Source: a virus (lineage: Duplodnaviria > Caudoviricetes). From it: 28,795 nucleotides of DNA. The stretch is from the IMG/VR virus record IMGVR_UViG_3300044724_007133, positions 1-28,795 of that record; one strand, given 5' to 3'. Of this stretch, positions 1-26,961 are shown in pieces (within the stretch, counting starts at the first letter, position 1; every line of letters starts with the position of its first letter). The translations under genes and the position numbers were made by a program. The notes beneath the pieces are model-generated. The model searched no databases. It had not been told where the DNA came from and saw only the letters and a program-made list of their open reading frames with translations.

Positions 1-1948
1 TAATAGCGGCGCTATCTAAACCGCCAGATTGATCGGCAAATGATAATGTACCTGCTCCGTTTGTAACCAAGACCTGATTAGAAGATCCGTCTGATGTTGG
101 TAAAGTGAACGCTGTTACAAACGATTGTAGGTTAGCATCATATGCAAGTACATCCGTACCAGCAACAGGAATTTCACTTGTGATCGCTAGCGTACCGGTG
201 GTTACAGGTAATGTAAGATCTACGTTGCCGCTGTAGCTTGAATGAGGAGCAGATTTAATTCTTGCTCTGTGTGCATTGTTAACTTCACAATACAAATCAA
301 CATACGCTACCGAGCTCGTGCCTGTCCGAACTTCAATACCACCGTCTTGAATTGTAACACCACCAGTGGATCCATTACCGTCTACAATAATCGACGAATC
401 GTCAATCAATCCTCTGAGATAGGTGTTTGTAACTGTACCAGTTATTTCAGCAGTAAGACCGGAGATGTCTGTCGAGGCATCAATCTGACCAAGTGTGATT
501 TGTTGACCACTCAATGTTAAGTAATCGTACGAACCAGCTAATGTGACGTCAGTAGAGTTGTCTGTACCAACAGGATCGAACTTTACACCAGACGCAGCAG
601 TAAGATCAGAATCAATACCGAGATACTTGCCAGCAAGAGTACCTGCATTGAAAGCTGCAAGTGCAAAATCAGTACCACCTCTGTTAACAACGTTTACCGG
701 TAATGAGGAATCTAGGCCTGCATCAACCAAACCATTAAACACATAGTATTCACCGTTGCTTGCATCTCTAAAGAAGCCGGTGTGTCTCTTGGTCGAACCA
801 CCATCATCAGAGTAATGACCAACAAAGCCAATGTCTACGGCGTCCGATGTCTCATTGCTATCGGCAAGGTGTAGCAACGGATCTGTGACTGTATATGTGA
901 TAGAGTTAACTGTAGTGGTTGTACCATTAACCGTTAGATTGTCAACTGTAATATCAGCAAATGTAACATTATCTGATGTACCAACAGCCTGGCCGATTGC
1001 AATCGAGCCAGATGTAATAGTAACACCCGTGCCGCCACTAAAGTGTGCACGAGTCTCGGCTGCAGATGGACCTGTGTAGGTAATTGTGCCTGCACTGTAA
1101 GTAAGTGAACCATCCCCACCAGCATCTGTTACAGAGATAGCTGCTTTAGCGTCACTATCAGCACGTGCCGTAGTATAGTAAAGATTAGTACCTTCTGTTA
1201 CATTAGATGTCGTTAGATTAGAAATATCTGTGGACGCATCGACTTGGCCAAGAGTGATTTGTTGACCAGAAAGTGTTAGGTAGTCATAGCTACCAGCCAG
1301 CGTTACATCAGTTGAGTTATCCGTGCCTGCAGGATCAAAGCTGGTACCTGAAGCCGCAGCAAGACTTACAGTAAAATCGCTATCATGTCTAGCTGTTGTG
1401 TAATATAGATTGGTACCTTCAGTTACATTTGACGTTGTTAGGTTTGAAATATCTGTCGAAGCATCAATCTGATTTAACGTAATTTGTTGAGTAGAAATTG
1501 TTAGGTAGTCATAGCTACCGGCAAGTGTTACATCTGTTGAGTTGTCTGTACCAGCTGGGTCAAAACTAACACCCGAAGCAGCACTTAACTGCTGAGAGAA
1601 GTTTGCCGAGTCGTATGTTGTATATCCATAAGCAGTAATTTGACCAGCAGCATTAGCAGAGTCATAAGTGGTATAACCAGCATCATTAGTAAATGAACTA
1701 ACAGTAGTAGGTGCCCCGGTTAGAGAGCTGTAGGCATAATCTTGCCGCAATTGGACATATGCACTGTCAATAAGGGCAATTGTAGCAGCAGAATCAACGC
1801 CTGCATCTCCAGATACTAAAACACCACCAGCGGTAGTACCATCACCGATGTATAGTTTCTTAGTATCCGTTACGTAAATCGGCTCACCAGAATCTGGTGT
1901 GATACTAGATCTATCTGCCTCAACGCCTTTTCTAAATTGTAATGGCAT
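1..1948 (-). CDS. Tail fibre-like virion protein, 3'-truncated by the window edge (>=649 aa); Mtd_N-like N-terminus
   Basis: Absent from the ORF track because there is no stop in the window. ATG at 1948 is preceded by GAGGTG (SD). Hand translation: MPLQFRKGVEADRSSITPDSGEPIYVTDTKKLYIGDGTTAGG...FADQSGGLDSAAI. The N-terminus resembles the QFR.G...GE..Y.TDT.K..IGDG motif of Mtd_N-type fibre anchors. G/T/S/D-rich, with internal repeats and a module shared with 2558..5464. Confidence 0.85.
   Translation of the reverse strand, partial: MPLQFRKGVEADRSSITPDSGEPIYVTDTKKLYIGDGTTAGGVLVSGDAGVDSAATIALIDSAYVQLRQDYAYSSLTGAPTTVSSFTNDAGYTTYDSANAAGQITAYGYTTYDSANFSQQLSAASGVSFDPAGTDNSTDVTLAGSYDYLTISTQQITLNQIDASTDISNLTTSNVTEGTNLYYTTARHDSDFTVSLAAASGTSFDPAGTDNSTDVTLAGSYDYLTLSGQQITLGQVDASTDISNLTTSNVTEGTNLYYTTARADSDAKAAISVTDAGGDGSLTYSAGTITYTGPSAAETRAHFSGGTGVTITSGSIAIGQAVGTSDNVTFADITVDNLTVNGTTTTVNSITYTVTDPLLHLADSNETSDAVDIGFVGHYSDDGGSTKRHTGFFRDASNGEYYVFNGLVDAGLDSSLPVNVVNRGGTDFALAAFNAGTLAGKYLGIDSDLTAASGVKFDPVGTDNSTDVTLAGSYDYLTLSGQQITLGQIDASTDISGLTAEITGTVTNTYLRGLIDDSSIIVDGNGSTGGVTIQDGGIEVRTGTSSVAYVDLYCEVNNAHRARIKSAPHSSYSGNVDLTLPVTTGTLAITSEIPVAGTDVLAYDANLQSFVTAFTLPTSDGSSNQVLVTNGAGTLSFADQSGGLDSAAI
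452..1582 (-). repeat. Intragenic repeat AASGxxFDPxGTDNSTDVTLAGSYDYLTxSxQQITLxQxDASTDIS(NLTTSNVTEGTNLYYTTAR): copies at 1388..1582, 1163..1357 (225-nt period) and a partial copy at 452..598
   Basis: Direct comparison of the translated copies: near-identical protein with many synonymous nucleotide differences. Confidence 0.9.
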
Positions 1949-2330
1949 CTCTACACCTCAAATGTTAAAATGTTCCCATGTCGAGAGTAAACTCAACAGG
2001 AGAGGAAAACGTACCAAAGTCATATGCTTGACTTGTTCCAGCCGATGTTACATTAGCTGTAATGCGAATTGTGTCTGAAGCGGGTGTAGTAGTAATAGAG
2101 ATATTAGAACCAGCTTCCAATGTCAAAGTATCAGACGGACCATCCGCCTCAACAGTAGTTTGACCGGAGACAGCAATCTTAGTGAATGTATTCTGCCGAG
2201 CTGCAACATACGCGGAATCAATTAACGCAATTGTTGCTGCAGAATCTACTCCTGTTGGAGCTTGGGGGGTTTGTCTCGCTTGTACATAAGCAGAGTCAAT
2301 AAGGGCAATAGTGGCTGCTGAGTCTACACC
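1754..2330 (-). repeat. 16-aa peptide GVDSAATIALIDSAYV encoded three times in two genes (1754..1801, 2205..2252, 2283..2330)
   Basis: Identical peptide in all three copies; codons differ at synonymous positions. Confidence 0.9.
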
Positions 2331-2486
2331 GAGAGCTCCAGCACTAATACTCTGGACACTATTCGATGTATTTTTAAAATAGAGCTTACCATCTTGGTAG
2401 TTAAGCGCTACTTCACCATACTGGAGATCCGCCGCAAGAGGTACTTTACCTGCTGTGGCAGACTTTTTAAGTATAATTCTAGCCAT
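1965..2486 (-). CDS. Short tail-fibre-associated virion protein (173 aa)
   Basis: N-terminus MARIILKKSATAGKVP...GEVALNYQDGKLYFKN is typical of phage fibre anchor domains; two DSAATIALIDSAYV repeats; ends YDFGTF...LDMGTF. Confidence 0.75.
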   Translation of the reverse strand: MARIILKKSATAGKVPLAADLQYGEVALNYQDGKLYFKNTSNSVQSISAGALGVDSAATIALIDSAYVQARQTPQAPTGVDSAATIALIDSAYVAARQNTFTKIAVSGQTTVEADGPSDTLTLEAGSNISITTTPASDTIRITANVTSAGTSQAYDFGTFSSPVEFTLDMGTF

Positions 2487-2513
2487 TCTATTCCCTAAAA
2501 AGGTTTTATTTAA

Positions 2514-2557: not shown

Positions 2558-5464
2558 TTAATAGCTACCGCCATCAATTGTATCAATAGTAACGAGACCG
2601 TCTGTTACATCAAACTCATCCGAGTCAAACTTTGCAATACCAGCTGCATTAACAGTCGCATTTGCAATTCCAACTGTTAGTGTTGTCCCACTAGCAGATG
2701 TTGTAATAGGACCAGAACCGTTGATAGTAAACGTTTCACCAATCGTTGCAGCAATCGAACCACTCTGTGATGTAAGAGTAATATCGTTAGCAGAAATTGT
2801 GCCGGTTCCTGAAAAGTGTGTACTATTGAAAGCAGCAACACCCTTTGTCGCTCCGTCAGCTGCCGCATTTGCTACAGTTACTTGGATCTCGTCACTAACA
2901 ATTGATGTGCTAACGCCTTGGCCAGACGCACCGGTGATTGTTACAGTCTCACCTAATGTTCTATCTACCGTACCAGCACCATCAGTAGCAAATGAAACAT
3001 CATTGGATGTGACATCGCCACCAGTTACAGTAAAGTTTGTACCATCGAATGTTGCAACACCTGCGTTGGTCTCACTTGCTAGCTCAGCAGCGATTGTGTA
3101 TGTATTAACACCATCAGTAATGTCAATACCTTCACCAGCAACCAAAGCAGTCGACAAGAATGTATCAACACGCGTGTCTGTGTAGTAAAAATTAGTACTA
3201 CCTTGTGTTAGATCATCCGTCGTCTTTGCTGCAAAGTCTGAATCAAAACCAGACATCGAACCAACAATGGTGTCGGCTGTTAGAGTACCAACTCTAATGT
3301 TTGCATATTGTAGAGATGCATCACCGAAGTTAATCGTATCAGCTGGTGATGAAGAATCAAGAGCTGAGTCAACTAAGTTCTGGAATAGTACGTATGTACC
3401 GTTTGTTGCGTCACGAACAAAACCAGTGTGTCTCTTTGTGGTACCACCGTCATCTGAGTAGTGACCTAGGATACCAATATCGATAGCATCTGATGTCTCA
3501 TTGCCTGTAGCAACGTGAATCATTGGGTCGGTAATCTCAAGAGTTGAAGTATTAATTACCGTTTGTGTACCGTGGATCGTTAGGTTACCATCAACAACAA
3601 GGTTGTTTGTGACCTTTAAGCCAGAGAATGTAACCGAGTCACCCGTACCAACAGCCTGACCGATTGCAATAACACCTGTACTACTGTCATATGTGACGCC
3701 AGTGCCACCTGAGAAATGGGCTCTTACTTCAGCAGCCGATGGACCTGTGTAAACAATCTCACCAGTAGATGGTGTGTATGTAAGCGAACCATCACCACCG
3801 TTGTCTGTAACGGTTAGCGAATAACGAGCGTCCGAATCAGCGCGTGCTGTTGTGTAGTAAAGGTTATTTGAACCTTCGTTAATATCATCCGTGTCAATTG
3901 TACCTGAACCACCTAGAGAGATAGTAGTACCATTAACCTGGATCGTAGAGTTTGCTAGTTCAGCGTTACTAATCTCACCATTAGCAAGAGTAACCGACTT
4001 ACCGGATAGATCTAATGTACCAGCAAGTTGTGTATCACTAACACCGCCAGCAGCAATCGAAACTGCACCTGAAGAAACCGAGAAGTCAGCTGATGCAAAC
4101 GATGCAATACCCTTAGTAGATGTTGTTGCATCGTCACCTGTAATTGTTACTTTACCCGTGGTAACAGCAGTACTAATACCAGTACCACCTTCAATATCAA
4201 CTGTACCGCCAAGAGCAACATCTGTAGTGTTTGTATCGTCACCAGTGAATGTTGTTGTCGAGTTTACAAGTTTGGCATTTGCAATCGAGCCAGCCAACTG
4301 ATCATTACTAACACCACCTGTGGCAATAGCAACTGCACCAGATGTAACTGTAAAGTCGCCTGCTGCAAAAGATGCAACACCCTTTGCACTTGTAGTCGCA
4401 TCATCACCAGCAACTGTAACGGTGCCGTTCGAGACACTGGTACTAATACCAGAGCCACCAACAATCTCTAAATCAGAATCAAGAAGATTAATACCACCAG
4501 TGCCTGTATCAGCAGCAAGGTTGAGGTCTGTAGAAACGTTAACAGAACCAGCAGCAGTCAAACGACCTTGCTGATCAACTGTAAATGTTGGAATAGCAGA
4601 GGCAGAACCATACGAGCCTGGTGTTACTGCCGTATCGTCTAGATCAATAGAAACTTGTCTACCAGAAACTGTTGTTGTGATTCCTGTGTCGCCAACAATA
4701 GACAGCGATGAGTCAAGTAGACTTACATCACCAGTTGTTGCACCATCACCAGCGAGATCTAGTGTAGAAGAAATATCTACTGTATTAGCAGCAGTTAACT
4801 GACCTTGGGCATTAACTGTAAACGTGGGAATCTGTGTAGTAGAACCGTACGAGCCTGCAGATACACCTGTGTTTGTAATGCTGATTGCAACATCGTTGTC
4901 TGTTACGGCTGTTGTAATCCCTGTGCTGCCTGTGATCGTTAGATCGGAGTCAGCCATGTTAATGGTGTCAGTACCTGTATCACCATTAATTGTTAGATTC
5001 GATGCACCTACGTTATCATCAACGTATTGCTTTGTTGCAGCGTCTGTACCAGCAGTAGGTGTGCCTAGACTTGTAATCTTAGCGCTCGAAACATCAACAG
5101 TACCTGATCCGTTGGGATCTAATACAACATTACCGTTGGTATCTGTCGAGCTAATTGTGTTCCCGTTGATGTCAATATTGTCAACTTTTAAGTTGTCAAT
5201 CTTGCTGCTTGCATCCGTAATAATTGCACTGGATGCAGTCAGTGTACCTTCAACGTGATCTAATCTATCTGTAAAGTACTTACCACCAATGACATCAATG
5301 CTGTTAGCATTGCCTGAGCCATCGACACCACCCGTACCAATGTATAGTCTATCACCACCATTGCCTTGGGTACCGCTTAAGTATGAGTACGCCTGTTCAC
5401 CTAGCTTGAGTGTTGACGGTGCACCACTCGTACCAGATCGTTTAATTTTAATAATTGATGCCAT
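2558..5464 (-). CDS. Long tail fibre-like protein (968 aa)
   Basis: N-terminal MASIIKIKRSGTSGAP..LKLGEQAYSY...RLYIG fibre-anchor motif; DAATKQYVD motif; GSYGS..IPTFTV..QG.LTAA twice; about five AT..xGxAxF...FxV repeats; C-terminal IDGGSY. Confidence 0.85.
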   Translation of the reverse strand: MASIIKIKRSGTSGAPSTLKLGEQAYSYLSGTQGNGGDRLYIGTGGVDGSGNANSIDVIGGKYFTDRLDHVEGTLTASSAIITDASSKIDNLKVDNIDINGNTISSTDTNGNVVLDPNGSGTVDVSSAKITSLGTPTAGTDAATKQYVDDNVGASNLTINGDTGTDTINMADSDLTITGSTGITTAVTDNDVAISITNTGVSAGSYGSTTQIPTFTVNAQGQLTAANTVDISSTLDLAGDGATTGDVSLLDSSLSIVGDTGITTTVSGRQVSIDLDDTAVTPGSYGSASAIPTFTVDQQGRLTAAGSVNVSTDLNLAADTGTGGINLLDSDLEIVGGSGISTSVSNGTVTVAGDDATTSAKGVASFAAGDFTVTSGAVAIATGGVSNDQLAGSIANAKLVNSTTTFTGDDTNTTDVALGGTVDIEGGTGISTAVTTGKVTITGDDATTSTKGIASFASADFSVSSGAVSIAAGGVSDTQLAGTLDLSGKSVTLANGEISNAELANSTIQVNGTTISLGGSGTIDTDDINEGSNNLYYTTARADSDARYSLTVTDNGGDGSLTYTPSTGEIVYTGPSAAEVRAHFSGGTGVTYDSSTGVIAIGQAVGTGDSVTFSGLKVTNNLVVDGNLTIHGTQTVINTSTLEITDPMIHVATGNETSDAIDIGILGHYSDDGGTTKRHTGFVRDATNGTYVLFQNLVDSALDSSSPADTINFGDASLQYANIRVGTLTADTIVGSMSGFDSDFAAKTTDDLTQGSTNFYYTDTRVDTFLSTALVAGEGIDITDGVNTYTIAAELASETNAGVATFDGTNFTVTGGDVTSNDVSFATDGAGTVDRTLGETVTITGASGQGVSTSIVSDEIQVTVANAAADGATKGVAAFNSTHFSGTGTISANDITLTSQSGSIAATIGETFTINGSGPITTSASGTTLTVGIANATVNAAGIAKFDSDEFDVTDGLVTIDTIDGGSY

Positions 5465-5769
5465 TAATAAAAGCCTCCATCGGAAGTAATGTCTGCCACA
5501 ATTTCATTTTTAGCAGTCCACTTACCGTTATCTGAATCATATACGAGAAGCCCTTCATCCTGAAGACTTTGCAAATCGACATCTGACAAGTCGCTAATTG
5601 CTAGCTTACCAAACGACAGCGTTCCCGCTCCGTTTGTTTTAACAACATCATTTGGATTGCCATCTGCTGTGGGATATCGTAGACCCGAAGCTACTAGAAC
5701 GCCGTTGAATACAGCGCTGTCGTTCACCTCTAAGCCCTTGCGGACGATAAACCTCTTATTGATGGCCAT
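5464..5769 (-). CDS. Small fibre-associated virion protein (101 aa)
   Basis: MAINKRFIVRKGL start; YPTADG....VVKTNGAGTLSF motif shared with the 1..1948 protein; DLSDVD and LVYDSDNGKW fibre-type motifs; ends DGGFY; TAATG stop/start overlap with the next gene. Confidence 0.75.
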   Translation of the reverse strand: MAINKRFIVRKGLEVNDSAVFNGVLVASGLRYPTADGNPNDVVKTNGAGTLSFGKLAISDLSDVDLQSLQDEGLLVYDSDNGKWTAKNEIVADITSDGGFY

Positions 5770-5828: not shown

Positions 5829-6677
5829 TTATGCGTCTATTGTAAACTTCTTAGCTTTAAAGCTCGTATTTGTCAGCGTCGGTGTGAACAGAAGAGATAT
5901 TGTTGAGCTGTCTCCTGTAATACTAATAGTAGCATCAAACTCGCCGAGACTTGAATCATCTGAAAGAGTACTGACATATCCATATTCATTCATATACACA
6001 CTACTACCATTATGAGTCAACAACATTTCATACGTCTCGTACCTACTGTCTGAATCATGCTCGAGTTGAATTACATACTTGACGGATCGATGTAGATTAC
6101 CTTTGAATGTATCGACAATCTGGTTTTGAGTTGTCAGTGTCAAATCTGTAGATGGGTCCTCACCTTTAGCAAGAGTTTGAACTACTCCAATTACTGGTAC
6201 ACCATCTTCGCCCAGAACTTGATTCCCATCGTCATCCAACACGACCTGAGATACACCAAGGCCACCAGCGCCATCATCAGACAACGCAATGTCACCAATA
6301 TAGATCGTTTGTCCTTGTACATACAACGAACCCCATCTATATTGCGGTGTACCTAAGTTATATCTGATATCAGAGTCTGGTACAATTGAACCCTCTGATA
6401 CAATATTTCCTCTAAGTTTTAAACCAGCACCAAACCTTGTGGTTGAATCAAGCTCTTCAATTCTTTCGAGAATTGCCTTATCTGGAACATTAGTAAAATT
6501 GTTCCAATCAAGATAGTAACCGGGCGGCTGTCTGTTAAGAGTGGCGGCATTGAATGCCGCTTGATCAACTGACCGTATTGGCGTGCCAATTACAACCTTA
6601 GATACAAGAGTTTGACCCTCTGATATCTTTACGGTTGTCTTCTGACCTACCGATACGTTAAACTTTTCTGAAGCCAT
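5829..6677 (-). CDS. Virion structural / fibre-associated protein (282 aa)
   Basis: YYLDWNNFTN and IVPDSDIRYNLGTPQYRWGSLYV fibre motifs; C-terminal DTF....RSVKYVIQ...E.LLTHNG..VY..EYG module typical of T4-like cyanophage virion proteins. Confidence 0.7.
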   Translation of the reverse strand: MASEKFNVSVGQKTTVKISEGQTLVSKVVIGTPIRSVDQAAFNAATLNRQPPGYYLDWNNFTNVPDKAILERIEELDSTTRFGAGLKLRGNIVSEGSIVPDSDIRYNLGTPQYRWGSLYVQGQTIYIGDIALSDDGAGGLGVSQVVLDDDGNQVLGEDGVPVIGVVQTLAKGEDPSTDLTLTTQNQIVDTFKGNLHRSVKYVIQLEHDSDSRYETYEMLLTHNGSSVYMNEYGYVSTLSDDSSLGEFDATISITGDSSTISLLFTPTLTNTSFKAKKFTIDA

Positions 6678-6680: not shown

Positions 6681-7034
6681 TTATTTTGTTACTGATGGAG
6701 TGACAAAAATTTTACCCTCGATAACACGCTCAACAATAGTAGTTGCGCTGTCCTCGTCATAGGATATTTCTACATCATAAACATACTTACCGGCTCTTAG
6801 AGAATTAGTTTGCTCATTTGTCAAGGATAGGTTTATAATACCGCTGGAAGCGGGGGAAGCGACAATACCAGTAAACGTAGTTGTGTCTGAATCTCCACTG
6901 TTATAATTTTTTTTCATCTTACCATCAACAGTGTATCCATCCAGATCTTTTTTTGATCCGTCCGTATTTGTAAGATGTAGTTCTATAGAAACATCTGTAC
7001 CTTGATCAATTGTAAATTCTTCGTACTGAGCCAT
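6681..7034 (-). CDS. Conserved small virion protein of T4-like phages (117 aa; possibly BppU-N-like beta-sandwich adaptor)
   Basis: IDQGTD start and G.YVYDVEI...RVIEG.IFVTPSVT end are characteristic of a family found next to fibre genes. Confidence 0.7.
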   Translation of the reverse strand: MAQYEEFTIDQGTDVSIELHLTNTDGSKKDLDGYTVDGKMKKNYNSGDSDTTTFTGIVASPASSGIINLSLTNEQTNSLRAGKYVYDVEISYDEDSATTIVERVIEGKIFVTPSVTK

Positions 7035-7792: not shown

Positions 7793-7794
7793 CT

Positions 7795-8523: not shown

Positions 8524-9148
8524 ATTTCTTTATTATCGAAACTTGTTAATGAGTGGAGGGGATTGGACTTCTTGGACACCAAAACTAGATTTGCAACAGG
8601 TTCAACAATATTGCTTTGACAACAGTAGTGTGTTTATGAGGTATCATAAAGATGATAAGGTTGATCAAAAACGTACGGCACTTCCTATAACAAATGCAAC
8701 GGGCCAACACGACGATTCTAGTTTTATAGTTCTCAAGGAACTCGATCAACACGAATTTTCATTTACTAAAAAAACTCAGCACTATTATGATTCGGGACTA
8801 GGATCCCTTCTTGATAAGTTTGGGTCATCGTTGGGTAGAACACACATTGTAAATCTACAGGCTGGTGGTTATTTCCGTCCTCACCGCGACGGGCCAATGG
8901 AGTGGCATTCACCAGAGTTAGAAGGATGCAGATTACTATATTGTATCAATAATTGTGATTATAATAACTTCCATTTGATTTTAGGAAATTCTGTTCTGCC
9001 TTTGAAGGATGGTGACATCTATTTAATCAATGCAATGATAAAACATTCTGCAGTTAGTTTTAGCGACGAATGCTTTTTTCTGATGATGAATGTAAAATAT
9101 GACAGACAAACAATGAAAGCGCTAATTGATCTTGAATTCAATAGATAA
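8516..9148 (+). CDS. 2OG-Fe(II) oxygenase, Asp/Asn beta-hydroxylase-like (210 aa)
   Basis: GRTHIVNLQAGGYFRPHRD (HxD) with a distal His in INAMIKHSAVS; double-stranded beta-helix pattern. Confidence 0.8.
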   Translation: MNEFLYYRNLLMSGGDWTSWTPKLDLQQVQQYCFDNSSVFMRYHKDDKVDQKRTALPITNATGQHDDSSFIVLKELDQHEFSFTKKTQHYYDSGLGSLLDKFGSSLGRTHIVNLQAGGYFRPHRDGPMEWHSPELEGCRLLYCINNCDYNNFHLILGNSVLPLKDGDIYLINAMIKHSAVSFSDECFFLMMNVKYDRQTMKALIDLEFNR

Positions 9149-18337: not shown

Positions 18338-21300
18338 TTAGGTACTCAAGGCAATTGCTCTGAAGTCCCGAATTTGTGGAACCTTCGAACTGTTTGTTGA
18401 TTTCATTACAATCTTAAATTGCATCTGATCAAACGGTGTCAAATCGCCATTATCACCTCCAATCAAATACTCATACTCTCTAAACACTGTTATGTTATCA
18501 TCTGTCGCTACAGGAGAAATAGTATCCTGTAGAATCCACTCAGTGTTAAACAAGATACCTTCCGCGCTGTCTTGGCTTGTATTAGTTCTGTAATACAAGT
18601 CAACGTAAGAACCATTAGGTCTGTTTGCTGCCAAAAGAACTTTAATGCCTGTTGCAGGATTTTCTAGAGCGACAGGAAGAGTAATATGCTTAGCGAGATG
18701 AGTACCACCTGATGGTGAAGTTTCTGCAATGTACGTATTAGGTACATTGAATCCACTCGTTGCAGCTGCAGCCTGTCTGTCGATCAAATTGTTGACAGCA
18801 AGAATTGAGCAACGCTGCATATCGAGCATAGGCGATACATTGCTATTCGAAGAATTCAAAATAGCGTTGATTTGAACTGACTTGTTACCATTGTTGGCAT
18901 CGAACCCTTGCGCTGCCTCAACCCGCTCTGATGCAATCACTTTAGGTGTGTTAAATATGTTATTATCGTTAATAACAATTGGTGTGAATGAGGTATCTTG
19001 ATTGTACCCACTTAGACCATCATTCGACGTCAATGAAACACCAGAAAGGAATTTACCTGTAAATCTTATTGTAGTGTTTGGAGGAACGAGGGTTTCGACT
19101 AGCGGAACAGCAACGTCCATCATTACTTGTCGTTCAGTTAGTACTGCGGTTCCTCCACCCAACGCTGTCGCGTTTGCAGCAGAATCAGCTATGATCTTAA
19201 ATCCGTATCCATCGACTGATTCAATTGTTCTCACGCCATTGATAGAGCCTGCTGATATACCACCAACAGCTTCTGCCCCAGCAATGTTAACCGTATCTCC
19301 AACAACAAAACCATGTCCTGTTAGAGGAATGTATACACCAGAGTCTCCGGAGTCGGTCAACAATTCGTTCGTTTGAATTAATTCAAGAGGTGTTGTTACA
19401 TTCACTAGTCTAGCGACACCCTGGCTTGTACTAAAGTTTGCTTTATACAAAGTAAACATTAAATCACGTTCTTGATCAGGAGTCCATGTTCTAGCGTTCT
19501 GTGACTTAAACAACGAACCGAGAGAAGGTTGTTTAGCAACTCTCGCTGCAGTCGTGTTCAATTGGAAATCACCAGCCTTCGATACATAGACATTGTACGT
19601 CGTTGTATCAGCGATCAACACAATTGAGTACTCGTTACCACCTGTTAGATAAACAGGTTCGTCAAACTCAAATACAGTTTCTAGTCCTTGTACATCTGTC
19701 ATAGAAGCTGTAGTTAGATCAGCAGGGACCGCTGTTGGCACTTGCTGTGTCATCGCTAGAATTTCTGTTGATGATGGAACACCATTCACTGTTGGTCTAA
19801 TTTGACAAATCACAGGAATTGTTGAATCCACAGTAGCAAAGTGGATACCAACCTTTGTTACATACACACCCTCTGTTTCAGGAACAAAGAATGTCTGAGC
19901 TAGAGGATCAACCAACCAAGCTCTTGTGGTAGTACCACCTCCAATAACAATCCGTCTCGTTGCAACAATGTCGCGTTGTCGAGTTTCCAAAACTCCCGTT
20001 GACGTAAAGTTCGCACGTGCAATACATAGCGCGTTGTCATCTTGCGCTACATTAATATCCATTAATTTGAACTCGCGGGTACCAGTTCTGAATCTTCTTG
20101 CGGCTGTAGACGGAATGAAGAATGAACCAGCAAGCGTACCATCAGCACCTGTAATGATTTCAGATGTTGGAGTATCGGGGTGCTGAGTTGCAGCATTATA
20201 ACGGTTACCATAATCTTCGTCGTTTTGACTGTGACGAGAATACGATTCAACTTTAACCCACGACGACACATCCACATTATCAAAGAATGGGAACATTCTG
20301 TGGTTAGGTTTTAGACCCCAAGCCCTGAAATACACCTTTCTTGAACGCATGAATGGAATAAAAGCGGTATCTAATAATCTGTCTCCGACAGTATTACGAA
20401 TAACTCTATCAGACGTAATACGTGCTGTTTGGAACGTGCCTACTACTGTCCTCCATCCCCGCATTCTGTGACTAATACGTCGCTCTATTGATTCGTTCTG
20501 AACCGAAGCACCAAATGTTGCCTGACCTTGTAGTTGACCAGCCCAATTCCACAACCAATTATTCCAACCAAAACTAGCATTGTTGCTGATTGTGACCCCG
20601 CCATCTATCACATTGTCGGCAACATAGTCACGTTCGACCCAGTTATCCGTTGTAGGTGAAAGTTCCATGAAACCTTCTTTGCGTACAACAGCATAAGGAT
20701 TAATGTTAATATATTCGCTTGCAAACTGCTGATCTTGATATGTTGAGTGAGTGTATGACAAATAAACATTGTCGCCCTTCAATACAACATTAGTCGAATT
20801 GTCCGAGTCGAACTTCAATCGGCGCTCTTGTTCAACAAACGACGGTCTAAGAATCCCTTGTTGAGGATCAATAGAGGCATGATAATCAGCACTCGTTGTT
20901 AATGCACGAGCATGATCGTAGAAATTATCTACAAAGAAACCAGACTTGAGACGAGAATTACCAGCGGAATCAAATACCAGTAAGTTATCTGTTTGAGTCT
21001 CTAGTAGAGATAGCGAAGTGACTTCTTCAAGTTTTGACAACCGTTGCTCGAGCAAATCGATATCTTGCATTGTGTATCGTTGTGCGCGAATCTGGTTAGT
21101 AAACAAATCTCCATCATTTAACATGTATGGATTCATGTGAACATGGAACAAATCCAACGTGCCTGTTGGTTTAGCTGGTAACTGAGGGACAAGAGAAGGT
21201 TCACCCTCTAGAACACTAACGGCACTGTTCTGATCAATACCAATTCTCAATGTCTTGCCAAGATAATACTTCACATCAGCTTGTACAGCCTGAGCATTTC

Positions 21301-23446
21301 TTGGTAATCTAAATTGAATTGATCCTGCACTTGTAAAGTCATCGCTCGGACTCTTTACAGAACGGAAATCAAGTACATCTCTGAGATTGACTGTAGAACC
21401 ATCGTCTTTTGTATAGTCAGGAATATCTTCATAGTCAATCTGTCCTGAATATGAGTTTACGGCAAAATAGTGGCCACCTGCCAAATGCTCGAAATACCTG
21501 AACTGTACATATACATCACCTGCTGGTGCTGTTTGTCCTGGCTTGAGTCTCAATTGACCCAAATCATAATGTGTATCCCTTTGACCATTGTCAAACTCAT
21601 AACGAGAAGAAATGTCAGCTCCTGAAACTGAGCCACTTCTGATTGCTAACACATCGTAAACATCTGCTTTTCCTAAATTAACAGTACCATTACCTGCAGG
21701 TGTGATTGTACTTGTAGTAGTTGTAAGACTTTTCTGCTTAGGTTGGGCATTGGTCAACAACACAAAACCATGAACTTCTAACAATGTTCCATCGTCTATT
21801 GTTACGGTATCAATGTTAAAGTTTGCAAACGTATCACCCGCCGTACCACCACTAGCAAGCGTTGCCGTGAACGAAACATCAGAGTCTCTACTAAACACAA
21901 AATCAGTTGTGTTAGTCCAATCTGCATCTGTTAATCCAGTTAATTGAACTTGGTTGCTTGTAGCAGAGATTGATCCGAAATAGCGGTGAACAGTAATATC
22001 TGCACCAGTGACGCTTTGTGGTCGTGTGATTGGCAAATCAAATAAGTATGAGCTCGCAGCTGCTTCTTTCAAAACCGCAGTGTCGTTTTCTGCAAGAATA
22101 TTGATATAGTTTGTTGTGCTTGTGCCCAATGATGCCAAACCGCCTAAGTTCGCGCCAGACTCTCTTTCCACACCAAACAAATGAATTCGGAAGTTACCAT
22201 CGTTGTTTTCTTCTACGGCACTAACATAAGCAGTACCAAGAGTGGTCCCTGTAAAATTAGATCCACTCTTTAGCGTTACTTGTTCGAACGGATTAGGCAA
22301 ACCAGCGTTTGAACTAGCAACACCAATATAGTAATAACCATACGAAGCACTAATTGCTTCATCTGTTGTTAATTCAGTTGTTCGTGGCTTATCAATTGTA
22401 AACTTCGTTGGAAGATTAATAAACGCTCTGTACCCATCAACATACGCTACACCATTACTAATGTCTAAATCAACTTTTGTATTGTCATCTTCGTTCGTAT
22501 CAAATTTAAGAATAAAATTCTTGGCAATGTAGTTACCTGATTCTTCGAATGTTCTAGTAGCTAACAATTTTTCAGGAATGTTGTAATCATCACCAGTTAC
22601 ATTTTCGTCTATCTTCACTCCGTTGCGTATTTGAGCAAGATAGATGTAGTTGTCGGTTGCAGTGAGGTCCTCAATCACAGCAAGTGTGAGACGGATTCTG
22701 TAACGGTCTGCACCAGGCGCAGATCTGTTTAGTGTTGCACCTTGATTGTCAAACAAATTAGGGTCATCTGCCGTAGTAACAATGCTTTCTGTTACCTTCA
22801 AGCCGATAGTTGCGTTGGGAGTACTAGAATATTTGGAAACGATAATACTCTGTGAACCAGTAAATACTAATCTTTCCTTGACATAAAAATCACCAGCGTC
22901 AATAGAAAACCGTGTACCTTGTCCCACAGCTGGATTGGATGGAGTGTTAGTTGTCTGTACAGTAAATGTAAAATCACCTCCCGACAATGTAGTACCGGGT
23001 GTAACTCTAATTGGTTCGCTACCAGCTGTTTCTGCTTGGGTACTGACATAGCGAACAAACAGCGTTGCAGGCTCTGCTGCACTAACATAGGCTGTGCTCT
23101 CAATCACCTCTACGATGACACCCTCAGTACTTGTCAATCGTTGACTACCTGAGTTTAGTGTAGTTAGAGCGGCTCCTGTAGGGTAAGGATTAATTGATGT
23201 ATCTAACTTAATGAATTCATATTCATTGTTAGACGTCATGTTTCCCGAATTGACAGGGTTACCATCTTTAAACAGATGTCGCAGCAAACGAGACATTTCT
23301 GTCTGTGTAATCGTTTGCATCTGTGTAAGTTCACGAGCCTGCAAAGCACGGCCGGCGTTAAACAGAATACGGTGATAGTTGTCGCTATCAACGTAATCGT
23401 CTTTATAGGTAGATGCAAATAAATTTTTCGAGAAACTTGTAGCCAT
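18338..23446 (-). CDS. vrlC: VrlC-like / DUF4815 large baseplate-associated structural protein (1702 aa)
   Basis: YKDDY...NYHRILF..GRALQARELTQMQT, APGADRY, RTFEESGNY, RYTMQDI..LEQR, RLKSGFFVDNF, DPLAQTF, GSLFKSQN..TWTPDQ..DLMF and P.IRDFRAIA motifs. Confidence 0.85.
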   Translation of the reverse strand: MATSFSKNLFASTYKDDYVDSDNYHRILFNAGRALQARELTQMQTITQTEMSRLLRHLFKDGNPVNSGNMTSNNEYEFIKLDTSINPYPTGAALTTLNSGSQRLTSTEGVIVEVIESTAYVSAAEPATLFVRYVSTQAETAGSEPIRVTPGTTLSGGDFTFTVQTTNTPSNPAVGQGTRFSIDAGDFYVKERLVFTGSQSIIVSKYSSTPNATIGLKVTESIVTTADDPNLFDNQGATLNRSAPGADRYRIRLTLAVIEDLTATDNYIYLAQIRNGVKIDENVTGDDYNIPEKLLATRTFEESGNYIAKNFILKFDTNEDDNTKVDLDISNGVAYVDGYRAFINLPTKFTIDKPRTTELTTDEAISASYGYYYIGVASSNAGLPNPFEQVTLKSGSNFTGTTLGTAYVSAVEENNDGNFRIHLFGVERESGANLGGLASLGTSTTNYINILAENDTAVLKEAAASSYLFDLPITRPQSVTGADITVHRYFGSISATSNQVQLTGLTDADWTNTTDFVFSRDSDVSFTATLASGGTAGDTFANFNIDTVTIDDGTLLEVHGFVLLTNAQPKQKSLTTTTSTITPAGNGTVNLGKADVYDVLAIRSGSVSGADISSRYEFDNGQRDTHYDLGQLRLKPGQTAPAGDVYVQFRYFEHLAGGHYFAVNSYSGQIDYEDIPDYTKDDGSTVNLRDVLDFRSVKSPSDDFTSAGSIQFRLPRNAQAVQADVKYYLGKTLRIGIDQNSAVSVLEGEPSLVPQLPAKPTGTLDLFHVHMNPYMLNDGDLFTNQIRAQRYTMQDIDLLEQRLSKLEEVTSLSLLETQTDNLLVFDSAGNSRLKSGFFVDNFYDHARALTTSADYHASIDPQQGILRPSFVEQERRLKFDSDNSTNVVLKGDNVYLSYTHSTYQDQQFASEYININPYAVVRKEGFMELSPTTDNWVERDYVADNVIDGGVTISNNASFGWNNWLWNWAGQLQGQATFGASVQNESIERRISHRMRGWRTVVGTFQTARITSDRVIRNTVGDRLLDTAFIPFMRSRKVYFRAWGLKPNHRMFPFFDNVDVSSWVKVESYSRHSQNDEDYGNRYNAATQHPDTPTSEIITGADGTLAGSFFIPSTAARRFRTGTREFKLMDINVAQDDNALCIARANFTSTGVLETRQRDIVATRRIVIGGGTTTRAWLVDPLAQTFFVPETEGVYVTKVGIHFATVDSTIPVICQIRPTVNGVPSSTEILAMTQQVPTAVPADLTTASMTDVQGLETVFEFDEPVYLTGGNEYSIVLIADTTTYNVYVSKAGDFQLNTTAARVAKQPSLGSLFKSQNARTWTPDQERDLMFTLYKANFSTSQGVARLVNVTTPLELIQTNELLTDSGDSGVYIPLTGHGFVVGDTVNIAGAEAVGGISAGSINGVRTIESVDGYGFKIIADSAANATALGGGTAVLTERQVMMDVAVPLVETLVPPNTTIRFTGKFLSGVSLTSNDGLSGYNQDTSFTPIVINDNNIFNTPKVIASERVEAAQGFDANNGNKSVQINAILNSSNSNVSPMLDMQRCSILAVNNLIDRQAAAATSGFNVPNTYIAETSPSGGTHLAKHITLPVALENPATGIKVLLAANRPNGSYVDLYYRTNTSQDSAEGILFNTEWILQDTISPVATDDNITVFREYEYLIGGDNGDLTPFDQMQFKIVMKSTNSSKVPQIRDFRAIALST

Positions 23447-23459: not shown

Positions 23460-24875
23460 TTATAGTTGAATAACAATTTTAATATCTTCTGTCTGCTCTT
23501 CAGCACGTTGAATAGGAGCTCTATTATCTATGTACAGCAATTCACCACTGAATGGATCTATTGAGCCTCTAGTATACGCATCAGAGTCTGCGTCTGTTGC
23601 GACAAGCTCTGTGACGCCTTCACCAACACCACCATCGACCGTCACTGTTTCCGACTCTTGAAACTTTGTGAATCCTGTCGTTTCTGTTTGGTGGAAATAC
23701 AGATAATGGGTAGAACCAGAGTCATACACATCATCGAGATAAGCACGAGCGCCAGATGTGCCCCCTTCAATAATCGCGGGTGCACCTGAGGTTCCTAGTT
23801 GAAATGTTGTACTAACAGACGATAGTGATAGATATCTTAAACCAGATCCTGTGGTGCTTGTATAATCGGAATCTACGTCTTGCCATTTCTTAGGATTGCG
23901 AATCAAAGAAACTTGTCTGAAGCTGTTGCCAGATGTAATAATCCAGTCATCATCTTCTGCTCCAGATGGCTTAACATTAAGCATCATTGCGCTTGCTTTT
24001 AAGTCATCTCGCGCATCATAACCAAAGCCTTGTGACGGACCAATTACAGGCCGAATCACTGCTGTCACACCACCCACACCAGTCGGAGCTTCTACAGAAA
24101 CAGAGGCCCAGTCATACCCTGATCCAATATCAGGACTGCCAGATCCATTCGAATCAATTTCTATCTTTACAACCGCACCGCCATCGATGAACGCTCTTGC
24201 AGTAGCACCTGTCCCATTACCAACAACAGTGACAGCTGGAACGGTTTCATAACCACTGCCCTGATTTGTAACTCGATAACCAATAATTTGTCCTGCAACA
24301 GCGGCGTTCTGGTTTATTACTTGGTTTCTTTCTGACTCAGGATCTGCGGCGCCAGCACTATCAATTCTTTGGACTGGCATAAAGTTTGCGGCTAGAAATT
24401 TGGAAGCAGATAATGCACCAATAGTATACAAGTAACGCCACATGTAGCCATCAGCTGTGTAAAACGGACTTGTGCCGGTACCTGTTGGTTGAACAGTGGA
24501 AGGGACAGCCTGTCCTTGGGCATTCCGACCACCCTGCAAACAAACATACACCTGGTTCTCGTCTGTTATTACATAGAAGTTGTTAGTAGGATGGCCTACA
24601 CCAGCATCATCCCAACCCGAATATACAGCACCTGTTGACCAGTTACTACGGGGTACAACAGCGGATGCATCAGATACTAATTTATACGATTGAACAGCAT
24701 ACCTTGCTTGTCTGGCGGTACGCAATGAGTTGGTAGGAGTTGTAGGATTCTGATCAGAATCCCATGGATCGTTTTTACCAACTGCCGCATAGTAGTAACT
24801 GCTGACGTTTTCAATATCAGCTATTGTCTGACTTATAAACTGTTTCTTTAAATTATCAGTGATTGTCGCTGCCAT
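23460..24875 (-). CDS. gp8: Baseplate wedge subunit gp8 (471 aa)
   Basis: VVPR.NWSTG..Y, FYVITDENQVYVCL, TADGYMWRYLYTI, KFL..NFMPV and SGELLYIDNRAPIQR...QTEDIKIVIQL. Confidence 0.9.
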   Translation of the reverse strand: MAATITDNLKKQFISQTIADIENVSSYYYAAVGKNDPWDSDQNPTTPTNSLRTARQARYAVQSYKLVSDASAVVPRSNWSTGAVYSGWDDAGVGHPTNNFYVITDENQVYVCLQGGRNAQGQAVPSTVQPTGTGTSPFYTADGYMWRYLYTIGALSASKFLAANFMPVQRIDSAGAADPESERNQVINQNAAVAGQIIGYRVTNQGSGYETVPAVTVVGNGTGATARAFIDGGAVVKIEIDSNGSGSPDIGSGYDWASVSVEAPTGVGGVTAVIRPVIGPSQGFGYDARDDLKASAMMLNVKPSGAEDDDWIITSGNSFRQVSLIRNPKKWQDVDSDYTSTTGSGLRYLSLSSVSTTFQLGTSGAPAIIEGGTSGARAYLDDVYDSGSTHYLYFHQTETTGFTKFQESETVTVDGGVGEGVTELVATDADSDAYTRGSIDPFSGELLYIDNRAPIQRAEEQTEDIKIVIQL

Positions 24876-24887: not shown

Positions 24888-25886
24888 TTATGCAGTAATT
24901 GTGACGTAAGCGTTGCTTGAATCAGCACCACCAACCATAAACCAGTTAGCGCCTGACCAAATAACTTGTGTTGAACCGTTTTGTGCTAAGCTAAACGATG
25001 TGCCTGGAGCAAAGCTGGTTGGAGTAACTGTAACTAGACCTGCACCAGCATTGGCCATAATCTTGAGTTCTCCTGTTGTTGTTCCATCAGCAAGGGTTGC
25101 TGCAAGAGCTGAGCCTTTGTTGAATACTACGAAAGAGGCACTATCACTAACAGCTCCATCAGCTGTTTGTGTTTGATGATTCAATGCCAACTTGTTAACC
25201 TCAACAGCACCCGATCCTTTACTATTAACATTGAAATTAATATTAGTATCTGAACCTGTAGCACTTAGAGATGGACCGTTACCCGTAGCAGCGTTGGCTA
25301 AAGTAACCTCGTTAACAGCACTTGCTGTGGCTGTTACTTTAATAAGTTCTGCACCATTGATATCATTAATAGAACTATCAACAATAGGAGTTGTAAGAGT
25401 AGCAGACGTAAGAGTCTTATTTGTTAAAGTCTGTTGCGTCGCAAGTGTAACAATCGTATCGCTGTCTGTCAACGTTGGAATGTTTAGGTTAGTATTGGCC
25501 GTCAACGACCCAGGAACAAGAACATAATTGTGAGAAGAATCCGCATCCTTAATTTCTGGTTGTGTCATTGCTGGCGTCAGCAATGTTTTATTTTCTAATG
25601 TGTCTGTCGTATCGTTTAAGATAACAGTACCAGTAGCATTAGGAAATGTGATTGTACGCGCAGCGGTTGGGGTTGTAAATGCAAGATCGGTATAGTTAGA
25701 AGCAGTCTGAGTTCTTCTAATAGTAGTGTCTTGAATTTGAATATTAGTAGAAGGCTGACCGCTATCCCCACTTAGCTGCTCATAGATCTCAGCAAAGTTC
25801 TGATTGATCTTTTGGCCAGCAACACGTAAGGTATCACCTGTACCGTCGTTAGCTGATGTGCCAATATTAATGTTCTGTCGTGCCAT
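24888..25886 (-). CDS. Baseplate protein with T4 gp9/gp10-type N-terminal domain (332 aa; fibre connector)
   Basis: MARQNINIGTSANDGTGDTLRVAGQKINQNFAEIY matches the gp9/gp10 N-terminal motif; TLENKTL/TLTNKTL fibre repeats follow. Confidence 0.8.
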   Translation of the reverse strand: MARQNINIGTSANDGTGDTLRVAGQKINQNFAEIYEQLSGDSGQPSTNIQIQDTTIRRTQTASNYTDLAFTTPTAARTITFPNATGTVILNDTTDTLENKTLLTPAMTQPEIKDADSSHNYVLVPGSLTANTNLNIPTLTDSDTIVTLATQQTLTNKTLTSATLTTPIVDSSINDINGAELIKVTATASAVNEVTLANAATGNGPSLSATGSDTNINFNVNSKGSGAVEVNKLALNHQTQTADGAVSDSASFVVFNKGSALAATLADGTTTGELKIMANAGAGLVTVTPTSFAPGTSFSLAQNGSTQVIWSGANWFMVGGADSSNAYVTITA

Positions 25887-25914
25887 GTTCTAACCTATTA
25901 ATTAGTTATACTGA

Positions 25915-25922
25915 TATTTATA
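25915..25922 (-). promoter_or_regulatory. T4-type late promoter TATAAATA overlapping the gp7-like stop codon
   Basis: Exact consensus (GTA TAA ATA), 29 nt upstream of the ATG at 25886. Confidence 0.7.
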
Positions 25923-26961
25923 CGATGGGCAGATCACTATCAAACTGTCTGTCCAATGGATCCCAAACTGGTACATAAACTTCGTCAAACGTATCAAGCG
26001 TAGACGAGAGCCGTGCAACCCGGAAATCAACACCAGCAGAATCTTCATCGAACGATGGAGATGTTCTACCTGCAGCCTCACCAATATCATCGTATGTCCT
26101 ATCCAATTGCTCAATTGTAAGGTCTCCGTAGTTTGGCTCACCCTTAAAGTTAGTGGAAACTTCAACTCTTCTTACCACGCTATACTCGCTATCTGTTAAT
26201 GCATCATCATAGGTATCACCATGGATACCACCTCTTGCAACAACCAAACCAGAAACCTCTGTTAGTGTAGTTGATACCAACGCTCCTGTGCTGTGTACAG
26301 CAATCGCGGGTGCCTCGTCAGGTGTGGCTGTTGGCGCGAATAAATTTACATCCCCTGTGGCAGCAAGTTGAACTTCTGCACCGAGATACAATCCAGCCGG
26401 ATGAACAAACAGTTTGTATGTATCCTTCCACTCGCTGAGTGGTATACCAATTCTAATAAGGATAGCATACTGTTGATACAGTTTATCGTTCAAAATAAAT
26501 CGTTCAGACTCCGAACCAATTTCTGATTGACCGACAGTAAAAATATATTTCTTCGTATATTCAATATCTGGATTTAAACCATAGAACATTCTGAAGAATT
26601 GTTGCATAGAAAACAAAGTGCCCTTGGATCTATAGAGAACACTTGAGACCTTTGCAGCTGCTCGTTTATCTTGGAATCCTTGAAAATATTGCTCGCCGAG
26701 CAGCAATTCATCCTCAATGAAATTTAACAGCTTTTCATCTGCTGCAGAAATATCCTTGCTTTCAAACAACTCATGGATTAGATGAGATGGTGAAATTGGA
26801 TCATGCTCGAATTGATAATATGCTTCCAGGAATGCAAGGAACTTAGGATATGTCGAGCCAAAGTATTCAGGCAACACCTCACGAATTGAGTGCTTATCAC
26901 TGAATGAAAGGTCCCGTCGATTATTATCGACTAGAGTTTTGTCTTGGGTAACGTGCGCCAT
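25918..26961 (-). CDS. gp7: Baseplate wedge protein gp7-like, unusually short (347 aa)
   Basis: LPEYF...YPKFLAFLEAYYQF, LYRSKGT..S...FFRMFYG and YQQYAILIR.....SEWKD..KLFVHPAG; lies directly after gp6. Confidence 0.75.
   Translation of the reverse strand: MAHVTQDKTLVDNNRRDLSFSDKHSIREVLPEYFGSTYPKFLAFLEAYYQFEHDPISPSHLIHELFESKDISAADEKLLNFIEDELLLGEQYFQGFQDKRAAAKVSSVLYRSKGTLFSMQQFFRMFYGLNPDIEYTKKYIFTVGQSEIGSESERFILNDKLYQQYAILIRIGIPLSEWKDTYKLFVHPAGLYLGAEVQLAATGDVNLFAPTATPDEAPAIAVHSTGALVSTTLTEVSGLVVARGGIHGDTYDDALTDSEYSVVRRVEVSTNFKGEPNYGDLTIEQLDRTYDDIGEAAGRTSPSFDEDSAGVDFRVARLSSTLDTFDEVYVPVWDPLDRQFDSDLPIV

Follow-up and report, generated by a model that had tools for sequence, protein, structure and literature searches.

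An Asp-Ser-(Asp/Ala) motif on the outer tail proteins of a clade of marine T4-like phages as a candidate O-glycosylation tag

Why do so many baseplate and fibre proteins of one uncultured, estuarine T4-like phage carry the tripeptides DSD (Asp-Ser-Asp) and DSA (Asp-Ser-Ala)? The window analysed here (the whole stretch of 28,795 nucleotides, Table 1) spans the VrlC-to-neck island known from pelagi- and cyanomyophages as a host recognition cluster with fibres and glycosyltransferases (PMC7029224). The glycosyltransferases of marine T4-like phages have so far been read as tools acting on host LPS; the passages of PMC7029224 on the island assign its enzymes to host O-chain modification and do not mention a virion motif. 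Literature searches returned no earlier description of an Asp-Ser tail motif.

Table 1. Features of the window and their motif sites
Feature	Position	Strand	Remarks
Fibre-like protein, Mtd_N domain	2..1948	-	cut by window end; 3 DSD, 5 DSA (partly repeats)
Fibre-like protein, 173 aa	1965..2486	-	4 DSA within duplicated unit
Fibre-like protein, 968 aa	2558..5464	-	5 DSD, 1 DSA
101-aa protein	5464..5769	-	1 DSD, 1 DSA
282-aa protein	5829..6677	-	2 DSD
117-aa protein, phrog_1084 / fibre assembly phrog_3304	6681..7034	-	1 DSD, 1 DSA
Eight-gene opposite-strand cassette	7130..13424	+	zero DSD/DSA
Cassette GT-like gene	7795-8523	+	phrog_1962
Cassette Asp_Arg_Hydrox gene	9743-10396	+	family match
Tail fibre, 982 aa	15154..18102	-	3 DSD, 2 DSA
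VrlC-like baseplate protein (DUF4815)	18338..23446	-	DSD aa 20, 521, 880; DSA 826, 1421, 1626
gp8 baseplate wedge	23460..24875	-	3 DSD, 1 DSA
gp8 DSD sites	aa 39 (24753-24761), 335 (23865-23873), 430 (23580-23588)	-	
gp8 DSA site	aa 172 (24354-24362)	-	
gp9/10-like connector	24888..25886	-	1 DSD, 1 DSA, 3 DSS
gp7-like wedge protein	25918..26961	-	1 DSD, 1 DSA, both in C-terminal part
gp6 inner wedge, 609 aa	26963..28792	-	no DSD/DSA/DSS; internal negative control

In the 15 minus-strand proteins (7,380 aa), DSD occurs 23 times against 4.53 expected from per-protein composition (Poisson p ~6e-10) and DSA 20 times against 4.84 (p ~2e-7). These are the two most over-represented tripeptides of this set, and the motif is four- to five-fold above chance in the window's outer baseplate and fibre proteins. 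The DSD count agrees protein by protein with the roughly 23 of the original prediction, which had also put DTD at about three (3 counted) and had placed the motif on most baseplate and fibre proteins: DSD is found in 10 of the 15 proteins and DSD or DSA in 11, with neither in gp6 nor in the 408-, 162- and 77-aa minus-strand proteins. DSA, DSS and DSG had all been called frequent; this holds for DSA, only mildly for DSS (11 vs 4.99, or 7 vs 2.98 with repeats masked) and not for DSG (6 vs 4.96). That the cassette lacks DSD is correct (0 in 2,124 aa, 8 proteins) but carries no information by itself, the expectation there being just 0.54. When self-similar repeats are masked, the excess persists (DSD 15 vs 2.64, DSA 13 vs 2.69). 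The 43 sites form 33 flank clusters, and the nine non-fibre proteins alone hold 11 DSD against 2.08. Serine codons at the sites are a mixture of TCN and AGY, and the DNA pattern GAYTCNGAY is nearly confined to the coding frame (17 vs 1 elsewhere); the signal thus lies at the protein level. The Mtd_N fibre-like protein measures 909 aa where complete, in the near-identical record G010.

Next, 87 de-duplicated motif-positive loci were compared with 36 negative ones. Loci counted as positive when their DSD+DSA ratio was 2.5 or more, which makes the magnitude of the excess, though not the residue specificity, partly circular. Within D-x-D, only serine is enriched (674 vs 102 expected; threonine 55 vs 111), and x-S-D is enriched solely for aspartate. 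Small third residues are favoured (besides aspartate, A 598/105 and S 293/126, observed/expected), while bulky ones are depleted (DSL 34/95, DSE 29/60, DSP 19/52), as are further hydrophobics (DSI 50/90, DSV 43/97, DSM 2/16). Threonine is also rejected before alanine (DTA 88 vs 117). The tripeptide profile of the negative loci is flat. Among 120 gp8 homologues the counts are DSD 296 vs 30, DSA 219 vs 38 and DTD 11 vs 30, and among 120 VrlC homologues DSD 557 vs 86; these are related sequences and not independent, so p-values based on them overstate. The third position is chiefly D or A, less often S, N or G.

This profile was set against two known systems. The Bacteroidota O-glycosylation sequon is D-(S/T)-(A/L/V/I/M/T), with no tolerance of Glu for Asp (PMC12871550). 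As in the phage motif, Asp directly precedes the modified Ser, and DSA fits. However, that system acts on non-cytoplasmic targets and tolerates Thr as well as bulky residues in the third position (PMC12871550). In the phage motif there is depletion of Thr, Leu, Ile, Val and Met, the third-residue set L/I/V/T/A/S/M is matched by A and S alone, and the third position is most often Asp. With Thr rejected and bulky residues depleted, the originally proposed comparison is unsupported. The accompanying claim that DSD fits no known sequon overlooks SdgB, a cytoplasmic staphylococcal transferase that GlcNAcylates the Ser of a minimal DSD tripeptide (PMC8561734). SdgB and SdgA resemble the phage proposal in that the Ser of DSD is modified in the cytoplasm (PMC8561734), but they have a GT-B fold and act on long SD repeats, while the phage sites are isolated DSD/DSA in folded proteins and the SD dipeptide of the window is not enriched (53 vs 54 expected). 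No SdgB-like GT-B family appeared among the clade-restricted clusters.

The T4-like motif-positive phages form one clade of marine phages; the motif is absent from HTVC008M and Mosig. In 10 positive records the outer proteins hold 134 DSD (18.9 expected) and 100 DSA (19.1), against 7 (15.0) and 11 (16.6) in 8 negative records. The enriched classes are outer neck, sheath, baseplate and fibre proteins; one fibre protein of 2,855 aa has 77 DSA, and orthologues of the 117-aa protein show 16 motifs vs 1.6 expected in 10 positive records and 0 vs 0.5 in five negative ones. Inner virion proteins show the reverse, with DS[DAS] at 15 vs 40.8 in positive and 24 vs 27.4 in negative records. For gp6 the figures are 16 vs 64.5 (72 sequences) and 18 vs 17.1 (21 sequences). 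Depletion extends over inner baseplate and replication proteins, and capsid and tube proteins are free of the motif. Two non-virion proteins do carry DSD in the clade, namely the late sigma factor gp55 (7/8) and the small terminase, at its N-terminus. Outer enrichment together with inner depletion suggests a tag that something reads, and the prediction that exposed virion proteins bear a lineage-specific motif resembling an acceptor is borne out in the outer tail proteins of this one clade.

All four gp8 sites lie in loops of an AlphaFold model, and 481 of 515 tag serines are in loops or insertions compared with 2,808 of 4,435 other serines. In gp8 homologues the sites drift by 1-5 residues inside loops. 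VrlC sites occupy 25 regions with variable occupancy; aa 20 (53/60 homologues) and aa 880 (50/60) are among those well kept.

Loops would also suit an explanation without any enzyme, in which D-S-D/A forms tight turns or acidic patches whose binding of Ca2+/Mg2+ keeps the outer tail stable in seawater. The flanks are somewhat enriched in Asp at -3 (2.4-fold) and in Gly at +3 (2.6-fold), Lys/Arg are scarce there, and the well-kept VrlC sites agree with such a role. We nevertheless regard it as unlikely. Calcium-binding loops follow the pattern Dx[DN]xDG; the DxDSDG form makes up 16 of 674 DSD, other D-x-D are not enriched, and neither Thr nor Asn substitutes for Ser. DSA misses the second acid, orthologues of marine origin beyond the clade lack the motif, and a passive feature leaves the depletion in inner and replication proteins unexplained.

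The best candidate for the writer is a distally encoded protein of ~205 aa (members about 200-230 aa), family A3/A4, with a predicted Maf/CstII fold. It is matched in 10 of 28 records: 9 of 15 positive ones (7/8 of those at least 58% complete), record C48C1, and 0 of 12 others. C48C1, also the sole match among 50,697 phage records, retains the enzyme and keeps the tag on its fibres; in its subclade, gp8 and VrlC no longer have the tag. All 12 records picked by the enzyme and holding gp8 are motif-positive. For the phage studied here, the gene had no match in three overlapping records (10-23% completeness) and a further 9.6 kb beyond. The T4-like positives belong to a single clade, so that co-occurrence is just as good for further genes restricted to it, including GT25 and those of a primase-like and a hub protein. 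A sister subfamily of the enzyme occurs in four motif-free records (G047-G050) and distant relatives in motif-free HTVC008M, Mosig and G021; a Maf-like fold alone is thus insufficient for the tag.

The enzyme model (pLDDT 92.6) best matches the Magnetospirillum magneticum Maf 5mu5 (Z 11.4, rmsd 3.5, 166 aligned; VIA-align, predicted model), followed by CstI (2p56, Z 9.8), SteA (Z 9.3) and two pyrophosphokinases that share the fold, MptE HPPK (Z 9.0) and TPK (Z 7.4). No Foldseek match reached E<=0.001, the top hit being CstII (E 0.006). CstI/CstII are the only sequence-level structure matches of the Maf-like profile, a wider version of which aligns to them weakly at GNGPS, CN, SG and G-D (E 0.04-0.14). 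Only 4 of 33 members match Pfam PF01973, all below its cut-off (best E 0.12), and the Atlas neighbour cluster of the family is 34% PF01973 (score 0.92). Candidates for acids that may correspond to the catalytic E324 and D415 of Maf are D45, invariant in 49 members, and D138, nearly so; both lie inside the span aligned to Maf 273-508.

A second lineage points the same way. In siphovirus DSL-LC06, of a family unrelated to the T4-like clade, a Maf-like relative lies directly upstream of virion genes with 8 DSAG against 0.2 expected. DSAG is found in 35/35 distinct siphovirus loci (picked by terminase) and the Maf-like gene in all 15 that reach its position; lacking any enzyme-free member, the set adds a second lineage and no within-lineage contrast. 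The two tag-linked enzyme subfamilies are not sisters in the tree, and in both lineages the gene sits among glycosyltransferase genes.

On this evidence we consider it an even call that D-S-(D/A) is a tag whose serine is O-glycosylated by the small distal enzyme with its predicted Maf/GT42 (CMP-sugar) fold. T4-like tail proteins assemble in the cytoplasm, and there the enzyme would act, reading, in flexible loops, Asp at -1 and a small residue at +1. The sugar it adds would be acidic and come from a CMP donor, for which host CMP-Kdo is the simplest guess and a nonulosonate the alternative; enzymes of the adjoining GT25, GT8 and GT9 genes might then extend the glycan. Such a coat may shield or condition the tail surface, with protease, adsorption or receptor effects. 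The Maf flagellin nonulosonate O-glycosyltransferases are likewise cytoplasmic, CMP-sugar dependent and Ser/Thr-linked, and in E. coli Maf enzymes can attach Kdo to Ser/Thr (bioRxiv 2020.06.03.131540). They differ in that Maf has 632 aa and the phage protein is a lone domain, wholly covered by the catalytic-domain match and without the N- and C-terminal flanking domains; in that Maf has no known sequon (PMC11339370) and the phage motif is sharply defined; and in that Maf targets flagellin and the phage enzyme putatively tail proteins. A wider version, tentative and rather doubtful, is that two or more unrelated families of marine phages own a sequon-directed protein O-glycosylation in which the one-domain Maf-like enzyme uses host CMP-Kdo to prime D-S-small loops of the virion and phage heptosyl-, GT25 and GT8 transferases build an LPS-core-like coat. 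Under this reading the tail surface would imitate that of the bacterium, and among Maf-fold transferases the 200-aa enzyme would be the first to have a tag of three residues, with a use in site-directed glyco-labelling in laboratory E. coli.

Phage glycosyltransferases modify virion proteins in mycobacteriophages (Freeman et al. 2023, cited in PMC12619734), where glycans are reported at the C-termini of capsid and tail tube subunits (PMC12619734). In contrast, the T4-like clade has a many-copy motif on outer tail proteins. Piled on outer and purged from inner tail proteins, this motif points to the virion as the substrate in a large uncultured clade, and motif and candidate enzyme together pinpoint exact residues and one small protein as targets. 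If the proposal is true, phage virion glycosylation would extend beyond mycobacteriophages, with consequences for adsorption and for how stable particles are in the sea, and protein engineering would gain a minimal tag-enzyme pair.

Another possibility is that the first sugar is placed by a distal-cluster enzyme of GT25 (or GT8/GT77-like) type and the Maf-like protein only caps the glycan, CstII-style. GT25 is present in 11/12 positive and 0/12 negative T4-like records, Pfam finds none in C48C1 with its tag-free gp8 and VrlC, and CstI/CstII act on glycans. This is nonetheless rather improbable: GT25 is missing in 7/7 DSAG siphovirus genomes and C48C1 keeps its fibre tags, a point left unsure by BLAST linking that placed one C48C1 protein in the GT25 cluster. 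Alternatively, the tag is read and the mark is not a sugar, with serine phosphorylated, pyrophosphorylated or nucleotidylated by the fold of the candidate enzyme (MptE/thiamine pyrophosphokinase-like) or by a host enzyme. MptE HPPK, SteA and TPK score close behind Maf, and serines in acidic context are common kinase targets; still, the conserved GNG.S, CN, SG and G-D align with CMP-binding sialyltransferases and the gene keeps glycosyltransferase neighbours in both lineages, which makes this quite improbable. Docking of a partner without catalytic function, be it an assembly chaperone, a decoration protein or a component of the host surface, would account for a short, loop-borne, mobile motif, and the gp55 and small terminase tails fit binding rather than surface coating. 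We hold it to be very improbable, as tens of copies in some fibres are more coat-like than contact-like and no binder except a 68-aa head-region protein stands out among the clade-restricted families.

The original prediction favoured the adjacent plus-strand cassette, which lies among fibre genes and holds, besides its GT-like and Asp_Arg_Hydrox genes, only genes with no family match. That it glycosylates the serine or beta-hydroxylates the aspartate is scarcely credible, and as primary writer the cassette is largely refuted, since five of its eight genes have best or near-best homologues (39-64% identity, order kept) in motif-free G050, G007 and Mosig have homologues of p242/p206 without having the motif, and motif-rich G001 has no p242 match. 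The hydroxylase has a 64% identical orthologue in G050, and its family PF05118 does not track the motif (3/12 positive records, with a weak fourth match in G002, vs 5/12 negative); given this spread and an invariant Asp-then-Ser before a variable third residue, Asp hydroxylation is unsupported. Positive loci commonly hold GT/methyltransferase-like genes at the same position, and the window's cassette amounts to no more than a variable accessory.

The window (28,795 bases, the complete viral record) derives from an uncultured T4-like phage and encodes gp6, gp7-like, gp9/10-like and gp8 proteins, VrlC, a 982-aa fibre and more fibre-like proteins, with a cassette of eight genes on the opposite strand. 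In its 7,380 minus-strand residues, DSD (23 against 4.53 expected from composition) and DSA (20 against 4.84) are the two most over-represented tripeptides, while DTD occurs 3 times (6.0 expected). The per-protein counts of the original prediction were all correct on recount. Masking repeats leaves DSD (15 vs. 2.64) and DSA (13 vs. 2.69) enriched, which rules out repeat expansion as the cause. A DNA-level cause, i.e. a GANTC methylation site or a DNA repeat, was also ruled out, with serine codons being mixed and the pattern restricted to the coding frame. DSS and DSG had been called frequent as well; DSS is mildly enriched and DSG is not. The absence of DSD from the cassette enzymes was counted correctly but says little, as just 0.54 is expected there.

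Part of the DNA of viral record G010 is 99.9% identical to the window. Half or more of the baseplate stretch is present in 15 of the 21 listed runs; after removing possible sources, seven studies are left, labelled estuary, seawater or marine, with no RNA dataset among the listed holders. A search by place for look-alike windows found none. Among 50,697 phage records, the best match to the window gp8 is Phage C48C1 (36%), for which no paper was found in the literature. C48C1 also encodes a highly repetitive protein of 3,347 aa, rich in GNY/YSR/YTR units.

The enrichment extends to 120 gp8 homologues (DSD 296 vs. 30, DSA 219 vs. 38, DTD 11 vs. 30), where the motif positions slide inside a few loops, and to 120 VrlC homologues (DSD 557 vs. 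86). Retrieval bias from DS-containing seeds was controlled by using DS-free seeds and by building the tree from motif-masked sequences. The 80 loci retrieved with DS-free seeds fall into two groups, 55 whose whole-locus ratio is at least 2.3 and 25 in which it is at most 2.1. In a gp8 tree of 123 distinct sequences, a single branch of 92 rows (support 99) contains 85 of the 87 positives, the remaining two being low-count cases. The motif is a trait of one T4-like clade, in line with the lineage-specific motif originally proposed. HTVC008M and Mosig are motif-negative. Six negatives are nested in the main branch as a subclade with C48C1 (L015, L071, L200, L202, L205 and L207); loss has affected its gp8 and VrlC, and most members (4 of 6) retain the motif on a fibre. 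L071 and L202 have almost no motif in the available DNA.

Across near-whole records, the marked proteins are gp14, gp15, the sheath, gp7, gp8, gp9/10, VrlC, a 117-aa protein and the fibres; the capsid, portal, tube, gp13, gp5, gp6, gp27, gp48 and gp53 are not marked. Six records have 47–144 sites within the gp7-to-sheath span (11–24 expected) against 7–13 elsewhere (12–19 expected). Of middle residues only Ser is enriched, of front residues only Asp, and the third is small. The gp8 model (pLDDT 89.8) has the T4 gp8 fold, and 481 of 515 tag serines mapped onto it are predicted to lie in loops or insertions, compared to 63% of other serines, a placement that refers to loops of a single-protein model. 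In positive phages, and far more than in negative ones, counts of DS followed by D, A or S fall below expectation in inner proteins (15 vs. 40.8; negatives 24 vs. 27.4), replication proteins (10 vs. 27.3; negatives 17 vs. 24.7) and gp6 (16 vs. 64.5; negatives 18 vs. 17.1). As the sequences counted are kin, effect sizes weigh more than p-values. It is very probable that some factor reads the motif. There are two exceptions to the outer-virion rule: the late sigma factor gp55, with a C-terminal DSDL in seven of eight positive records, and the protein at the small-terminase position, between gp15 and the large terminase, in which a DSD start is common in positive records. The end of gp55 has a conserved DSDL-x-x-F-L stretch. 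A fibre-like protein of 2,855 aa in G013 carries 77 DSA and 3 DSD.

The original prediction considered the adjacent cassette as a possible writer, by glycosylation and/or Asp hydroxylation. From gene occurrence, this cassette does not appear to be the writer, because its five best-conserved genes share order with those of the motif-free T4-like record G050 (DSD 6 vs. 7.4, DSA 2 vs. 6.3) at 39–64% identity, and neither its GT-like p242 family nor PF05118 (Asp_Arg_Hydrox) tracks the motif. The p242 family is present in the negatives G007 and Mosig and has no match in the positive G001. Since the identity to the distant G050 exceeds the level suggested by gp8 similarity, the cassette apparently transfers between lineages as one block. 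Two cassette proteins of 449 and 349 aa are paralogues (31% identical) without a Pfam or PHROG match; their Atlas neighbours are unnamed viral clusters, and a partial GT2-like fold is weak and below the naming bar.

The motif is real, clade-wide and tag-like; the proposed writer appears to be wrong, and a Maf-like enzyme is a specific alternative candidate. Comparing the proteomes of nine positive and eight negative phages gave few clade-restricted families, the transferase-like ones being GT25 and an unnamed family of ~205 aa. The gene of this unnamed family belongs to a distal glycan cluster that also encodes GT25, GT8, GT77-like and sulfotransferase proteins. The family was matched in 10 of 28 records (9/15 positives, C48C1 and 0/12 others); among the positives that are at least 58% complete, the share is 7/8. 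Conversely, 12 of 20 records picked via the enzyme contained gp8, all 12 being positive. No match was found in the available pieces of the source phage genome, no NCBIfam family fits, and a scan with the single protein P0300 found nothing. A third enzyme subfamily is present in four records that lack the motif, and HTVC008M, Mosig and G021 have distant members. In the tree, the two subfamilies linked to the tag do not group as sisters. The enzyme was also found on eight bacterial genome-bin contigs (L401–L408) with eight different taxon labels and T4-like neighbour genes, so no host is assigned; these are likely mis-binned phage DNA.

The predicted enzyme structure (pLDDT 92.6) best matches Maf (Z 11.4), then CstI (9.8), SteA (9.3) and MptE (9.0). 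Because the SteA and MptE scores are near that of Maf, a pyrophosphokinase-type chemistry is kept as an alternative; the sequence motifs, however, align with CstI/II. The most probable reading, at about even odds, is cytoplasmic O-glycosylation of the tag serine by this enzyme with a CMP-sugar as donor, after which downstream transferases would lengthen the glycan. The donor might be Kdo, as a guess; Maf transfer of Kdo in E. coli has been reported (bioRxiv 2020.06.03.131540). GT9 heptosyltransferase-like genes are present in G002 and in the siphovirus DSL-LC06. The proposed cytoplasmic O-glycosylation resembles that by Maf (PMC11339370) and SdgB (PMC8561734) without belonging to either type. 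Unlike Maf, the candidate lacks the flanking domains, and PF01973 is not matched above cut-off; unlike SdgB targets, the phage sites lack SD repeats. As far as the Bacteroidota sequon is described in PMC12871550, the phage motif departs from it in rejecting Thr and in its choice of third residue. Subscription journals and supplements aside, the literature searched held no printed account of the motif or of a phage Maf.

Coordinates of the features discussed
Feature	Record or locus	Position
Eight-gene cassette	window	7130-13424
Counterpart of five cassette genes	G050:C1	37671-41503
449- and 349-aa paralogues	window	10365-12748
gp55 (also in orthologues)	G001	134143-134730
Small-terminase-position protein, DSD start	G004	60379
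Small-terminase-position protein, DSD start	G005	54211
Small-terminase-position protein, DSD start	G011	61963
Small-terminase-position protein, DSD start	G012	70679
Small-terminase-position protein, DSD start	G014	116809
Fibre-like protein	G013:C1	66129-74696
Repetitive protein	C48C1 (L015)	29948-39991
GNG-type gene without DS tag, unannotated, Maf/GT42-like by weak profile match	HTVC008M (L390)	752-1309
As above	HTVC008M (L390)	4180-4983
As above	Mosig (L399)	6398-7255
KpsC-like gene (also in relatives)	L443	6408-7331

A related enzyme subfamily is encoded directly upstream of the virion genes in DSL-LC06 (30 kb), a metagenome assembly (PMC10611076). Its virion proteins, including the capsid and major tail protein, are rich in DSAG (8 vs. 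0.2) and DSA (11 vs. 2.5). Among 80 loci picked by terminase, 35 distinct ones were retained; DSAG occurs in 35/35 and the enzyme gene in all 15 loci reaching its position, a set with no enzyme-free member as control. In L568 and L590 the gene is present and was missed by ORF calling. Because GT25 is missing from 7/7 DSAG siphovirus genomes, the Maf-like fold is the one shared transferase found across the T4-like and siphovirus lineages. A KpsC-like gene (named from the record annotation, with no Pfam match) nearly always lies near the Maf-like gene in DSAG siphoviruses, and Mosig has two homologues of it; such genes would fit a CMP-Kdo pathway.
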